64,000 bases of DNA. Origin: Alphaproteobacteria bacterium (GTDB lineage Bacteria > Pseudomonadota > Alphaproteobacteria > RF32 > CAG-239). Made by a program: the position numbers and the translations under genes. Location: the NCBI GenBank assembly GCA_017444525.1, contig JAFSWL010000022.1, positions 6,646 to 70,645 of the forward strand, written 5' to 3'. This document shows, piece after piece, positions 9,865-20,153 of this stretch. Within the stretch, counting starts at the first letter, position 1. The number at the start of each line of letters is the position of its first letter. The notes below the pieces were generated by a model. The model ran no database searches. It was not told the DNA's origin and saw only the letters and a list, made by a program, of their open reading frames with translations.

Positions 9865-12387
9865 CTACGAGCGGACTTTGTTTATAAGCTGCGCCTGTAT
9901 TTTTTGTTGCAATAATTTGCTCTTAGCGTATATCTGACGGTATTCCTCAATGTGCGGCACATTTTTGCTGTCGGCTTTTTCAAGCAAAGCCTCGCGATTA
10001 TCTTTAACACCTAAATAATCATAAAATCGATGCAAATTCTGTGAAGAATCCGGCGTGTAGTCACGCCAAGCCTCAACAAACTGGCTAAATATTTTATTGT
10101 GAGGATATGGTAAATTCAGGGCTTCTTTTTCTATGGCGGATAAAAATTCTTCTTTATTATCCGGATGCTTGGCTTTGATTTCTTTCAGCATTTTAGCCGT
10201 ATTAAGCGATTCATTCATATCTTCTTTGCTATACCCCATCTCTGCAACTTTATCTTTGGTATATTTGTAAAGCTCCGGCCAGTTTAATAAGCCGTCTTCG
10301 TTTAATAAGTGCGTACATTTACCTTGTTTAACTTCTTCAATAATCTTTTTTGTTGCCGGATACTCAAAATAAGCTAAACCGAGACGTTCATTCATTAAAG
10401 CACCGGACATAGAGGCCGATTCATTAAGCAAACGTTTTTCAACTTTGGCTATCAAATCTTTATCACCGGTTTCCACCGCTTTAAGCATCATATAAGTCGT
10501 TGCGGCCGAATTTGCCTGCATTTCCCCAACGCACCGTCCGTAATGCGTATCTTTTTTTAAGTGCGGATTTTTGGCCGCCTGAATTTCCTTAGCCTCATCT
10601 CGTGATTTGCCCTGATACAAAAGCTCATAATGCTCTTTGAGATATTCGTCTTCCTTTTGGGCATCATCATATTTAGCTTGCATACCATGCATGAGTTCGT
10701 GAATTTCGGTATAAACGCTGTAGAAAGCATCTCTCGATAAGCCAAACGGATACATAATCAATTTTTTATCGCCGTTCTGCAAAATTGATAAAGGCGGTGT
10801 TTTTTGCCGACCAAATTTCGGATGCACAAAGTAATCATACCAAAATTTCCGCTTATCTTCTGAAAATCCAAGCCAATCCAATTCCGGATTGATTTCTTCC
10901 GGTGTACGGGTTAAAGCATCTTCGCACATCGGACCATGAATATGCACTTGCAGATGGTGAGTGTTATCATCAACGGACTTTTTACAATTTGCAATTTCCG
11001 GAGCTAAAAATTCTCGCACTACATCGGCGTAAGCCGGATGAAATTCGCCAGTTTCAAGCATTTGTTTTATGTCTTTGTCGACCTCCGGCTCGTTATACTT
11101 AAAATTAACTATATCTGTAAAATTAACCATTCTGGAATCCTTATTATGCTGTTTGATATATTCATTGTGCCGGCGAAGTGCTTCTTTATCTTTATACAAA
11201 TAACCGTTTTCTTCATTATAGAGCCATCCGATTTTAGCGGCAACCTCACGCATATCGTCGGCAGAAAGACCGGTTTCTTGTTTGTATTTCATCATAATTT
11301 TAATTGATGTTAATACCGCTTCTCGATCCGGTTTAGTTTCTTCATCTTTTTCACCACAAATTGCTGTTTTGAGACTTGGAAACGCAAACGATTTATTGCC
11401 GCCGCTCGCAAAATAATTTTCCAACAAATACTGCGGCGTATAAACATTGTATTTTATGTCTTGCGGTGCAAATTCAGCGGCAATCTTGCATAATTTTTCC
11501 GAGATTTCCGCTACCTCCATATCGGGATTTGTATCTATCCCCAAATATAAGGCTTTACCGTATTCTTGAGCGGCATTAAATGAATCAAATTGATAACGCG
11601 GTTCATCACTCAAAATACCCTTAGCAATCATATCATCGGCAATTTTTTTGTTGTTATCGTCCAGACTTTCATAGCGTATCAACACATACGCTCTGTCCGG
11701 CGCATTTTTATTGGCAGAACTCCAATAAGTTAAGATATTTTTATCGTACAAATCTTCACATACGGCTAAACACGGTTCTTCAACAATCTTGGCTAAATCG
11801 GCTTTGCTTTCAACCTGCGTATTTCCTGCCAAAAAGATTTGTTCTACATCACGCAAACGTTTTATCGGTTGTTTTACTTCAGCTTCAGCTAACAAAGCAT
11901 CTATATCAATATCGCCAAAATCCATCGGCTTGGCAGTTTGCAAACGCAAATTTTCACGTTTGCCGCCTTCATACAAATCCGCAACATTTTTCTCTGTAGG
12001 CTCAAAATATTTTATTCCCGGCTGTCCTTTATTTTTGCCGACAAATCCGCAATGCTCGTAAAACTTACCGGCTCCCCAAGTAGCATGAACTTCAACGCGA
12101 CCATCGCAACCTTTTTCAATGCTCATTTCATAAGCGCGCTGCAAACCGGCACGACCATAACCTTTACCTTGATTTTCAATTGTACCGAAACCGTCAATTT
12201 CCAAGACAGGCTTTAATTGTTCCGAATAACCGATAAACCATGAATCCGGATAAATCTGGTTTTCTCCGCGATAAGACGTTTTTTGTTTATGCACGCTGAC
12301 ATTCATCTGGCCGACAGTTTTATCGCCGTCCACCATATCAAAAGCATACATCTCGCCAAAATCAATATTTAATCCGTCATCTGCCAT
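9865..12387 (-). CDS. 840-aa chimeric protein: N-terminal GNAT-like acetyltransferase module plus HExxH zinc-metallopeptidase-like motif
   Basis: aa 45-120 has the GNAT-like motif A QGKGYG followed by KFYEHCGF. HELMH lies at aa 563-567 (nt 10687-10701). The rest is unassigned. Last gene of a 7-gene operon. Confidence 0.5.
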   Translation of the reverse strand: MADDGLNIDFGEMYAFDMVDGDKTVGQMNVSVHKQKTSYRGENQIYPDSWFIGYSEQLKPVLEIDGFGTIENQGKGYGRAGLQRAYEMSIEKGCDGRVEVHATWGAGKFYEHCGFVGKNKGQPGIKYFEPTEKNVADLYEGGKRENLRLQTAKPMDFGDIDIDALLAEAEVKQPIKRLRDVEQIFLAGNTQVESKADLAKIVEEPCLAVCEDLYDKNILTYWSSANKNAPDRAYVLIRYESLDDNNKKIADDMIAKGILSDEPRYQFDSFNAAQEYGKALYLGIDTNPDMEVAEISEKLCKIAAEFAPQDIKYNVYTPQYLLENYFASGGNKSFAFPSLKTAICGEKDEETKPDREAVLTSIKIMMKYKQETGLSADDMREVAAKIGWLYNEENGYLYKDKEALRRHNEYIKQHNKDSRMVNFTDIVNFKYNEPEVDKDIKQMLETGEFHPAYADVVREFLAPEIANCKKSVDDNTHHLQVHIHGPMCEDALTRTPEEINPELDWLGFSEDKRKFWYDYFVHPKFGRQKTPPLSILQNGDKKLIMYPFGLSRDAFYSVYTEIHELMHGMQAKYDDAQKEDEYLKEHYELLYQGKSRDEAKEIQAAKNPHLKKDTHYGRCVGEMQANSAATTYMMLKAVETGDKDLIAKVEKRLLNESASMSGALMNERLGLAYFEYPATKKIIEEVKQGKCTHLLNEDGLLNWPELYKYTKDKVAEMGYSKEDMNESLNTAKMLKEIKAKHPDNKEEFLSAIEKEALNLPYPHNKIFSQFVEAWRDYTPDSSQNLHRFYDYLGVKDNREALLEKADSKNVPHIEEYRQIYAKSKLLQQKIQAQLINKVRS

Positions 12388-12389
12388 AT

Positions 12390-13949
12390 TTATTCCCTAT
12401 ATTTTTTCGACAACAATTTATAAACACCGGTCTTTGGGGCTTCAATGCTAGGATTTTTAAACTTATTCCAAGCACTTTTCAAAATATGATGATTGATAAG
12501 CGCATTTTTCTTTTCTGCCTTTAATTTTTTGCCGAACGATAAGGCTTTCGTTACAAAAGGATGTAATGTGCTTTTATCGGTGATTTTTTGTAAAAAAGTA
12601 ACAATATCCGACATTTCGGATTTATTATCATACCAAGCTTGTCCGATTTTTGCCATTAAGCGTGCTTGCAATTTACCAACTTGCGATAAATTCTTTTCGT
12701 CAGTAGTATAAAATGCTTCGTTATGTTCCCTCATCTGATCATCATCTGTCAAAATACTATCATATACCATAATCATTTCATTTGGCCGTGTTGTAATAAA
12801 TGCCGCTTTATTACCTTTTTTATCGGAAAAATCTTGATAATCTTGTACAAACACCGGATATTCCGCAGAATAATTTTGGTCATATGTGGGTTTAATTTGT
12901 CCGTCTTTAACCGAATAACGATGAATGGTAGTAAATCCGAAATCGTCCGTCAAATCACGTTGACTGTTGTCGGTAATACAAATAACTTGTTTTAACGCTT
13001 TACTTTGCAGTTCTTTCGGGTATCCCAACTCTGTCATTTTTTCTTTAAAAACTATACTGAAACCAACCAAATCATCTACACCGAGACAATGAGACTGTAT
13101 AATTATGTTACCGAAGTTTTCGATGAGTTCTTTATCCGGAAGTTTTACTAAATTGCCATCAACATTGCGTGCCATAAACGGCGTAAATTTTTGCAAAATT
13201 TCGCGTCGATAATCATCTTCAACTTGGGTACTCCATTCTGTTACTTTGAGCCAAGCATGCTCTATTTGTCTGCTATAAGGTCGATAACAGGCAAGCATTT
13301 GCATATTGTCCTTCTGTTCCGGCGTCAGCCCCAAGGAATCAGCAAATTTATTTATATTTCCATTTGCTATGCGTGCTGTTTTTGTTTGATTACCGCCTAA
13401 ACAAAGCAGTGTTTTTTTCTTGGGATCAAGTATAACTTTTTCTTCCCAATGTATATCATTATTTTTAGATTTGAGGCCTAAACGATAATAGGAAAAATAA
13501 TCAGGATTTATGGTCATTTTGCCGTCTTTTACTTCATAATTGGTGTTGCCGTCAATATCTTTACATATTTCATAGTCAGGCTCTTCACGTCTTTCCAAAT
13601 TGCCGTTCTCGTAATAAGAAGTGTATATACCGTTTTCCATATCGCTTATCGATTTAATATTACCGTTATCGTAAAATTCGGTAACAATATCGTCAGGTGT
13701 TGTCTCTTGTTCCAATTTTTGTGTTTCCGGATTATATTTTCTTAAATAGCCATCGCCGGTCAATTCTTCAATTTTTACATTACTGTCATTTAAAAGAATA
13801 TAAGATCCATCTTTCTGTATGGTCTTGGTATTTGTGATTTTATCATCGCGTTTTGAAATTTTACGCGTACTGCCATCAGATAATTCTTGTGTTATGACAC
13901 AAAAATTACCGTCAAATGCTTGCTTTTTTTCACTTATAACTTCAACCAT
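12390..13949 (-). CDS. 519-aa orphan protein with N-terminal MORN-variant/YwqK-like repeats
   Basis: EFYDNGNIKSISDMENGIYTSYYENGNLERRE resembles MORN-variant repeats. The C-terminal ~330 aa are unassigned. There is a 2-nt gap to the next gene. Confidence 0.4.
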   Translation of the reverse strand: MVEVISEKKQAFDGNFCVITQELSDGSTRKISKRDDKITNTKTIQKDGSYILLNDSNVKIEELTGDGYLRKYNPETQKLEQETTPDDIVTEFYDNGNIKSISDMENGIYTSYYENGNLERREEPDYEICKDIDGNTNYEVKDGKMTINPDYFSYYRLGLKSKNNDIHWEEKVILDPKKKTLLCLGGNQTKTARIANGNINKFADSLGLTPEQKDNMQMLACYRPYSRQIEHAWLKVTEWSTQVEDDYRREILQKFTPFMARNVDGNLVKLPDKELIENFGNIIIQSHCLGVDDLVGFSIVFKEKMTELGYPKELQSKALKQVICITDNSQRDLTDDFGFTTIHRYSVKDGQIKPTYDQNYSAEYPVFVQDYQDFSDKKGNKAAFITTRPNEMIMVYDSILTDDDQMREHNEAFYTTDEKNLSQVGKLQARLMAKIGQAWYDNKSEMSDIVTFLQKITDKSTLHPFVTKALSFGKKLKAEKKNALINHHILKSAWNKFKNPSIEAPKTGVYKLLSKKYRE

Positions 13950-20090: not shown

Positions 20091-20124
20091 TGAGTTTTCC
20101 TCTTCAATATCTTATCTTTCGTTT

Positions 20125-20153
20125 ATTGTACAATAACGGATAGAATTTGTCAA
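20125..20153 (-). promoter_or_regulatory. near-consensus sigma70-like promoter for the 7-gene accessory operon
   Basis: On the minus strand, TTGACA (complement of 20148-20153), 17-nt spacer, TACAAT (complement of 20125-20130), 34 nt upstream of the ATG at 20090. Confidence 0.5.

Follow-up and report, generated by a model that had tools for sequence, protein, structure and literature searches.

What is an ATP-binding cassette (ABC) exporter doing in the middle of five orphan genes? The question is raised by a seven-gene array in a stretch of 64,000 nucleotides (nt) from an Alphaproteobacteria bacterium of the RF32 lineage (CAG-239; assembly GCA_017444525.1, contig JAFSWL010000022.1, positions 6,646 to 70,645), which we refer to as the window. 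An earlier note, made from the sequence alone, had offered two readings of this array: either a cassette of effectors has no more than its promoter in common with a housekeeping exporter, or the genes form a module dedicated to export or self-protection. The seven tightly packed minus-strand open reading frames (ORFs) that it described were all found where it had placed them, with the same lengths and with junctions of 14, -17, 15, 13, 14 and 2 nt. They are listed here in the order of transcription, the orphans being named after the length of their products in amino acids (aa); the loci compared with the window carry L numbers.

18981-20090, minus strand: g369, 369 aa, a clade-specific module (aa 9-305) followed by a basic C-terminal tail (aa 314-369)
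17185-18966, minus strand: ABC half-transporter A, 593 aa, GTG start, a transmembrane domain (TMD) and a nucleotide-binding domain (NBD), PF00664 and PF00005, type IV/ABCB-like exporter
15432-17201, minus strand: ABC half-transporter B, 589 aa, PF00664 and PF00005, overlapping A by 17 nt
14919-15416, minus strand: g165, 165 aa, a single domain with a predicted ADP-ribosyltransferase-like (DarT/KptA-like) fold
13964-14905, minus strand: g313, an ORF of 313 aa with a TTG start; the probable start is the ATG at 14854, giving 296 aa
12390-13949, minus strand: g519, 519 aa, a predicted MORN/OspA-like beta-sheet and an alpha/beta-hydrolase-like domain
9865-12387, minus strand: g840, 840 aa, three modules (GNAT-like, middle, HExxH...E)

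Our results suggest that the array would bring together two things that differ in evolutionary status, the ABC pair and, around it, a variable cassette of clade-restricted, module-shuffled, soluble and enzyme-like proteins. With moderate confidence, we read the locus as a variable cassette of candidate effectors that stands next to a housekeeping exporter and is likely served by a VirB-type type IV secretion system (T4SS).

The seven genes do not travel together

A scan of the genome collection with the 593-aa ABC protein gave about 24 orthologous loci from species-level metagenome-assembled genomes (MAGs), with identities of 64-97%. All flanks of these loci were translated and compared with the seven window proteins and among themselves. 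The two ABC genes were always adjacent or overlapping, and their neighbours varied by genome: most of the loci lack all five partner genes, and the neighbouring gene set was never identical in two loci. The locus L010, with 97% ABC identity, has none of the five partners and does not lie beside rnpA. In L011 (96%) the order is rnpA, a gene for a 1312-aa S41-peptidase protein, ABC, ABC, g165, a 208-aa ORF and g840, and in L028 (82%) it is ABC, ABC, g165, g519 on the same strand and a stand-alone copy of the middle module of g840. In L021, L022 and L051 (about 70%) g519 is convergent with the ABC pair and thus not co-transcribable with it. The remaining ABC loci have TPR, EF-hand, RodA, XerD-like or Na/H-exchanger neighbours. 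Since the upstream gene is divergent in about seven of the loci, the ABC pair can form a transcription unit of its own. Moreover, its rate of evolution is that of core genes: in L055 the 593-aa protein is 82% identical to that of the window, compared to 83% for yidC, 84% for rnpA and 84% for engB.

Homologues of four of the orphans were also found away from any ABC gene. This was the case for modules of g840 (L008 and L009, two unrelated contexts of one NCBI MAG), for g519 homologues with 47% and 72% identity (L050, L052) and for a g165 homologue with 59% identity, which lies near dnaA-dnaN-recF (L054). The locus L056 (8001-15112; contig k141_409067 of ERZ27257203) carries the cassette without the ABC pair and in the order of the window: a 799-aa protein ending in the g369 module, a g165 paralogue, g165, a 163-aa Cys-rich protein and g519, and then a 374-aa hydrophobic protein. 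The tandem g165 paralogues of this locus are 36% and 77% identical to g165 and its g519 is 56% identical, while its Cys-rich protein (NCPxxCP...WRCEEC) shares 86% identity with the ORF after g165 in L011. The seven genes, therefore, do not co-occur as a set in the related genomes, be it in the roughly 24 ABC loci or in L056, and the non-ABC genes are, by this comparison, a loosely conserved cassette.

These data bear directly on the second reading of the earlier note, in which the seven genes form one system and the ABC heterodimer exports the neighbouring proteins or their small-molecule product, or protects the producer. We consider this highly improbable. Tight junctions behind a single strong predicted promoter speak for such a system, as does the presence of cassette genes by the ABC pair in six divergent genomes, but most relatives, including the 97%-identical L010, carry the pair without any cassette gene, L056 has the cassette without the pair, and g519 runs against the pair in L021, L022 and L051. 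About 15 of 22 loci do have a variable gene directly upstream of the pair and on its strand, resembling a cargo-transporter layout, and GNAT, hydrolase and peptidase domains could in principle make up a biosynthetic set; however, no neighbour set is ever repeated, and the C39 domain, the membrane-fusion protein (MFP) and TolC are all missing. No type IV ABC exporter that lacks type I secretion system (T1SS) partners is known to export folded proteins of 165-840 aa. Since ABC homologues occur without these neighbours and the orphans are scattered elsewhere, the very outcome that the earlier note had named as a refutation, the dedicated module is essentially refuted. The comparative data favour the other reading, in which a cassette of candidate effectors and a housekeeping exporter have only a promoter in common.

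Another set of genes was seen at this site. In L010 (7098-9982) a trio upstream of the ABC pair encodes a 492-aa protein, a 178-aa MORN-repeat protein and a 291-aa patatin-like phospholipase with DUF6363. The same trio lies directly upstream, on the ABC strand, in L023 and L027, and inverted in L028 (18787-21610), and is another effector-like set at the ABC anchor.

The ABC pair is an ordinary exporter

Both ABC proteins score above the Pfam gathering thresholds for PF00664 (TMD) and PF00005 (NBD) and contain several hydrophobic segments each. The identity between A and B, about 38-42%, is as expected for a heterodimer pair. As the earlier note had observed, the NBD motifs are canonical in both subunits: Walker A (GLSGNGKT/GASGSGKS), signature (LSGGE/LSGGQ), Walker B-E (ILILDE) and H-loop (AHR). 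The closest solved structures are ABCB1, Sav1866 and Atm1. The best NCBIfam scores were obtained for MsbA (369 bits, compared to a cut-off of 602) and NdvA (355, cut-off 733), and the pair also scored well under the cut-offs for CydDC, HlyB, PrtD and LssB. With scores so far under the cut-offs, the pair does not qualify as the equivalog of a named transporter.

The pair resembles the TM287/288- and BmrCD-type heterodimers of the Sav1866/MsbA fold in having two adjacent, overlapping half-transporter genes, each with PF00664 and PF00005. In contrast to many heterodimers, which have one degenerate site, both NBDs are fully canonical here. With the classical T1SS and bacteriocin exporters (HlyB, PrtD or C39-ABC proteins together with an MFP and TolC) it shares a broadly equal fold and a variable gene adjacent upstream. 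However, Pfam identified no C39 peptidase or CLD N-terminal domain on either protein, both of which start directly with the TMD, and no HlyD (membrane-fusion) or OEP (TolC-like) family was present among the genes at 7-24 kb. Together with the sub-cut-off scores for HlyB, PrtD and LssB, this bears out the view of the earlier note that the pair is not a classical T1SS or bacteriocin exporter. The pair is an ordinary member of a known exporter kind, a predicted heterodimeric type IV (ABCB-like) exporter and a core gene pair of an uncultured rumen and gut alphaproteobacterial clade.

Transcription of the array

Three further features bear on the limits of the transcription unit:

20125-20153, minus strand: predicted sigma-70-like promoter, TTGACA-17-TACAAT, upstream of g369
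7404-9665, minus strand: g753, 753 aa, a possible eighth gene, 199 nt after g840
7364-7392, no strand assigned: strong, bidirectional, terminator-like hairpin with a 13-bp stem, the sole strong hairpin, which closes the gene array

The promoter sequence reported in the earlier note is present and was the best-scoring promoter-like site (11/12) in a scan of 7-20.6 kb. It lies within the 210-nt divergent intergenic region common to g369 and rpmH-rnpA. Note that promoter-like sites overall were not in excess in the scanned region (43, compared to 41.9 expected from shuffled sequence). No convincing minus-strand terminator was detected by the scan inside the seven-gene array, in agreement with an undivided unit. 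Since g753 follows g840 after a gap of 199 nt and the sole strong terminator lies beyond it, the transcription unit may hold eight genes. In the product of g753, aa 446-505 are weakly HepT-like (RNase toxin; Pfam E 3.7e-7), with a match to NCBIfam HepT_toxin below the cut-off; a single-sequence PDB search gave no match, and the gene is missing at the corresponding position in L011.

A matching arrangement was found in several independent metagenome assemblies, which argues that it is not an assembly artefact. Co-transcription from a single strong promoter is plausible in the source genome, as far as sequence can tell. The ABC pair would thus sit inside the transcription unit of the cassette in this genome without being a dedicated exporter of the orphans.

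Protein families of the orphan genes

None of the five orphans has a significant match in Pfam, NCBIfam, PHROGs or PADLOC, where just weak GNAT and MORN_2 hints were obtained. Their orphan status, therefore, holds for the curated libraries. It does not hold beyond them: four of the five have homologues and three have recognisable folds or motifs. The cassette proteins represent novel families, of types that are already familiar. A defence-island reading of the locus was ranked low because PADLOC gave no matches.

The g165 domain is the most interesting by-product of this analysis. The AF2 model of g165 (pLDDT 92.5) was used in a fold search whose top ten PDB matches were all DarT, a DNA ADP-ribosyltransferase (ART) toxin, or KptA/Tpt1, an RNA 2'-phosphotransferase (E 0.024-0.5, probability 0.96-0.97, TMq 0.35-0.51, weak values of which the best match had E 0.024 and TMq 0.51). 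These are the best and the only consistent fold matches of g165, which is a lone small domain of comparable size. The fold search against BFVD gave nothing. At the sequence level no ART link was found, as none of 30 family members matched Pfam, and the family profile had just chance helicase matches in PDB. The conserved residues are Y4, Y6, G53, R54, H146 and Y147, and the strand-1 His is variable. Thus, g165 differs from DarT and KptA in its weak E-values (0.02-0.5), in the lack of sequence or profile similarity and of a DarG-like macrodomain partner, and in not obviously reproducing their triad or tetrad. We consider g165 weakly ART-fold-like, on the basis of its model.

The g165 domain is widespread: 116 representative clusters were obtained at 50% identity, in which it stands alone or is fused to GNAT, HD, InPase, DUF5662, TopoI (topoisomerase-I) or LigD_N (LigD phosphoesterase) in proteins of up to 1287 aa. 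Across species the identity of g165 is 88-95%. The gene adjoins the ABC pair in L011 and L028 and occurs without it in L054 and L056. No conserved toxin-immunity-like partner was present beside it in the loci compared. A toxin-immunity reading of g165 and g313 was rejected, since g165 is followed by different genes in different genomes and g313 has a singleton product.

Two distant proteins with the g165 domain were found on phage-like contigs, one of 1239 aa with GNAT (L057 8001-11720) and one of 839 aa with InPase and HD (L058 6877-9396). On one of these contigs, genes of the GyrB and topoisomerase IV subunit A (PF00521) types lie amid ORFs without a Pfam match; on the other, the ORFs are unannotated and all point in one direction.

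For g519 we obtained 74 full-length homologues with 37-100% identity, all from its own clade. Its AF2 model (pLDDT 92.8) has an N-terminal single-layer beta-sheet (aa ~1-170) resembling OspA, Rhs and MORN-like proteins. The C-terminal domain matched the fold of the Obc1 hydrolase (E 1e-6, TMq 0.35) and of DPP4-family alpha/beta-hydrolases. Residues G185, G186, H287, C288, H343, R344, E408 and H409 are invariant, and the motif H287-C288-x-G290 is placed after a strand in the model, from which we infer that g519 may be a Cys-His hydrolase or acyltransferase. Beside the ABC pair it was found on the same strand in L028 and convergent in L021, L022 and L051, and it is not at an ABC locus in L050, L052 and L056.

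The product of g840 consists of three modules, which are combined differently among its paralogues:

11878-12387, minus strand: module 1, aa 1-170, GNAT-like acetyltransferase, motif A QGKGYGR (QGKGYG at aa 73-78)
11128-11865, minus strand: module 2, aa 175-420, middle module, also found as a stand-alone gene
9865-11124, minus strand: module 3, aa 422-840, putative zincin-like metallopeptidase, HExxH...E and a conserved basic tail

The Pfam GNAT match of module 1 is weak (E 0.002, below the cut-off). In a PDB search with the family profile its six best matches were acetyltransferases (best E 0.004), aligned on motif A. This module recurs in paralogues of 516-590 aa with different partner modules. 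Module 2 exists as a stand-alone protein of 180-276 aa, encoded directly after the ABC pair in L022 and L051 and after g519 in L028, and is also N-terminal in another protein (P0017). In module 3, residues H563, E564, H567 and E622 do not vary among paralogues with identities as low as about 31%, a gluzincin-type signature. The profile search of PDB with this C-terminal module gave no match, and neither did single-sequence PDB searches of g840 and g519.

No match to g369 was found in Pfam, NCBIfam, PDB, PHROGs or PADLOC. Its module can be N-terminal, central or C-terminal in proteins of 486-1465 aa, some of them with Peptidase_S41 or GNAT. At the corresponding site of L055 (8001-10823), the N-terminus of a 940-aa S41-peptidase protein matches residues 1-309 of g369 (77%). 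At that of L011 (1927-5865), the tail of the otherwise unrelated 1312-aa S41 protein (P0107) is 98% identical to the last 56 residues of g369. Related tails (...PFIKNYL-basic) end further architectures, so that a tail of about 50 aa is conserved across proteins that otherwise differ. Thus, g369 resembles a mosaic of S41 proteins, or a deletion derivative of them, in which the peptidase core is missing.

The 313-aa ORF of the earlier note is present, but its start calls for a correction. An ATG at 14854 is preceded by a AAAGGAAA ribosome-binding site, gene callers also give 296 aa, and we consider this ATG most likely the start; the junction to g165 then becomes 64 nt. The g313 product is a singleton cluster, with no relatives in a contig scan of the JGI metagenomes or in about 45 related loci, and in L011 and L056 its slot is occupied by the unrelated 163-aa Cys-rich protein. 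By these searches g313 is a true orphan in a variable slot.

The mosaic look of g369 with respect to the 940-1312-aa S41 proteins of the corresponding site, the singleton g313 and the occurrence of the g165 domain in giant proteins of phage-like contigs (with InPase, HD, GNAT and phiKZ_IP) would also suit a domesticated remnant, that is, genes for 'polyvalent proteins' of a phage or conjugative element that were split into ORFs and are now decaying or drifting neutrally. We think this very unlikely. The ORFs are intact, and the identities across species (88-95% for g165, 37-100% for g519) point to purifying selection. Moreover, the flanks are core genes (rnpA-yidC and hflKC-degP), no integrase or relaxase was seen in the window, and the identical arrangement recurs in several samples.

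A candidate route of secretion

A VirB-type T4SS lies in the window at 28256-54402 (minus strand), 8 kb from the seven-gene array, and includes VirB4, two VirB8, VirB9, VirB10 and VirB11. Its VirB10/TrbI protein is unusually large (1385 aa) and has beta-flower domains, and the VirB9/CagX-like protein carries a SPOR domain. The region also encodes a 1413-aa protein that combines eight Bflower_2 stretches with RHS and DUF3659 repeats, and has ORFs of 1707, 455, 381, 518 and 262 aa without a Pfam match.

The five orphans have no signal peptide or transmembrane helix, as the earlier note had said: their highest Kyte-Doolittle mean over 19 residues is below 1.5, that is, they contain no hydrophobic segment. 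The basic tails on which the note had based a cautious argument fared less uniformly. In four of the five orphans the C-terminal 20-mer has a net charge of +3 to +5, compared to a background of 0.5 +/- 2.4, which gives the argument weak statistical support, and the conserved tail of about 50 aa gives it some more, but the enrichment is modest.

We propose that g165, g519, g840, the g369 module and g313 would most likely be delivered out of the cell and into a target cell, and that the probable route would be the VirB-type T4SS, by way of the basic C-terminal tails. An effector repertoire fits better than housekeeping or defence functions because the orphans lack Sec signals, have basic tails and share a tail across shuffled architectures. 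It also fits better because their presence in close relatives is patchy, a T4SS lies 8 kb away, domains of the host-interaction type (patatin, EF-hand, TPR and MORN) occur among the neighbours at sister loci, and PADLOC and PHROGs gave no matches. Known T4SS effector repertoires (VirB/D4 and Dot/Icm, as the Bartonella Beps and those of Legionella and Coxiella) are likewise soluble, without Sec signals, clade-restricted, module-shuffled and patchily present, with basic C-terminal tails and enzyme-like or host-interaction domains; a VirB-type T4SS is present in the window. In contrast to known T4SS effectors, no BID, FIC or E-block motif was identified in the candidates, and no VirD4 was seen in the window.

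Several observations weigh against a delivered effector cassette. The VirD4 coupling protein, as just said, was not identified in the window, and the tail enrichment amounts to +4 or more in three of the five orphans, compared to 12% of background ORFs. The secretion of the orphans, like their T4SS dependence, their enzymatic activities and their co-transcription, is something we infer. The ART-fold match of g165 (E 0.024) is weak and has no sequence-level support, and its conserved residues show no obvious catalytic triad (H-Y-E/D/Q or R-S-E) or Tpt1 tetrad (R-H-R-R). g519 is conserved at full length and apparently in single copy, like a clade-specific housekeeping enzyme. Finally, cassette genes adjoin the ABC pair in at least six divergent genomes (the window, L011, L028, L021, L022 and L051), which exceeds chance and could reflect function rather than inherited synteny. 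We read this adjacency as probable inherited synteny or a rearrangement-prone neighbourhood, and not as functional coupling.

Some of these points would equally suit cytoplasmic, clade-specific enzymes that are not secreted and act in nucleic-acid or protein modification, stress or anti-phage defence, with the proximity of the ABC pair and the T4SS being incidental. This explanation is rather unlikely in our view. The full-length g519, with its invariant, catalytic-looking residues in 74 clusters, looks like a housekeeping enzyme, and ART-like, HepT-like, GNAT and metallopeptidase domains, as predicted here, are common in defence and toxin-antitoxin systems (PMC5512222; Pfam). However, neither PADLOC nor PHROGs matched any orphan, and no conserved antitoxin or immunity partner stands beside g165. 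Module shuffling, conserved C-terminal tails and patchy presence are typical of effectors rather than of housekeeping genes, and the neighbours in sister genomes carry patatin, EF-hand, TPR and MORN domains.

The candidate effectors also recall the 'polyvalent' proteins, which phages and conjugative elements with a T4SS inject into other cells and in which ART, GNAT and MPTase domains recur (Iyer et al. 2017, PMC5512222). Here, too, ART-like, GNAT and HExxH zincin-like (MPTase-kind) domains stand in variable orders, and g165 homologues are fused to InPase, HD and GNAT in giant proteins on phage-like contigs. In contrast to the polyvalent proteins, however, most of the domains are encoded here by small genes of their own, which lie on the chromosome among core genes and not on a mobile element. 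Moreover, the g165 domain is distinct from the Tox-ART-HYD2 clade described in that study, to which no sequence-level link was found. The definition of a polyvalent protein (multi-domain and encoded by a phage or conjugative element) applies just to the distant g165 homologues; g840 has three modules but is chromosomal.

A bolder scheme, which we regard as speculative and rather unlikely, would make of the cassette a 'disaggregated polyvalent-protein' arsenal. It would comprise g165 as an undescribed ART-fold family with at least 116 clusters at 50% identity, a Cys-His hydrolase seated on a MORN-like sheet, and a protein of GNAT and zincin modules, all of them basic-tailed. An atypical chromosomal T4SS with giant beta-flower VirB10-like proteins would deliver them from the uncultured rumen and gut Alphaproteobacteria into a eukaryotic host (e.g. 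a ciliate) or a bacterial target, and the ABC flanks would be a recombination hotspot at which such genes are swapped.

Genomic setting

In the scan with the 593-aa ABC protein, the closest genomes were MAGs of uncultured bacteria from rumen and gut (RUG, RGIG and HGM series), labelled by their depositors as Alphaproteobacteria, Rhodospirillaceae or Azospirillum sp. The seven-gene cluster is divergent from rpmH-rnpA-yidD-yidC-engB, and degP, hflKC and mrp lie on its opposite flank. Since no integrase or relaxase was seen among the window proteins, we take the locus to be chromosomal. An integrative and conjugative element or prophage origin was rejected on the same grounds and because of the core-gene flanks (rnpA-yidC; hflKC-degP).

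Two other sets of genes adjoin the T4SS. Between it and engB-yidC-rnpA, a 1355-aa autotransporter is encoded at 24069-28136 (minus strand), a layout kept in the related contigs L001 and L055. At the far end of the window (58477-62093, plus strand), a type IVb-pilus-like set (a TcpQ-like protein, a secretin and a PilO/PAP-like protein) adjoins the T4SS region. We found no papers on the RF32 clade and T4SSs, and the literature on rumen-ciliate endosymbionts held nothing specific to this clade.

What the locus means

The outcome is a deflationary one: a core exporter would lie by accident inside a variable gene cassette, with no new protein-export mechanism to pursue here. Two by-products remain. 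Fold-level annotations can now be proposed for three protein families that are outside the curated libraries, including a widespread ART-like domain that is also present in phage-like giant proteins. Moreover, the candidate effectors of the cassette can be shortlisted for an alphaproteobacterial clade that is uncultured, bears a T4SS and is common in metagenomes of rumen and gut.

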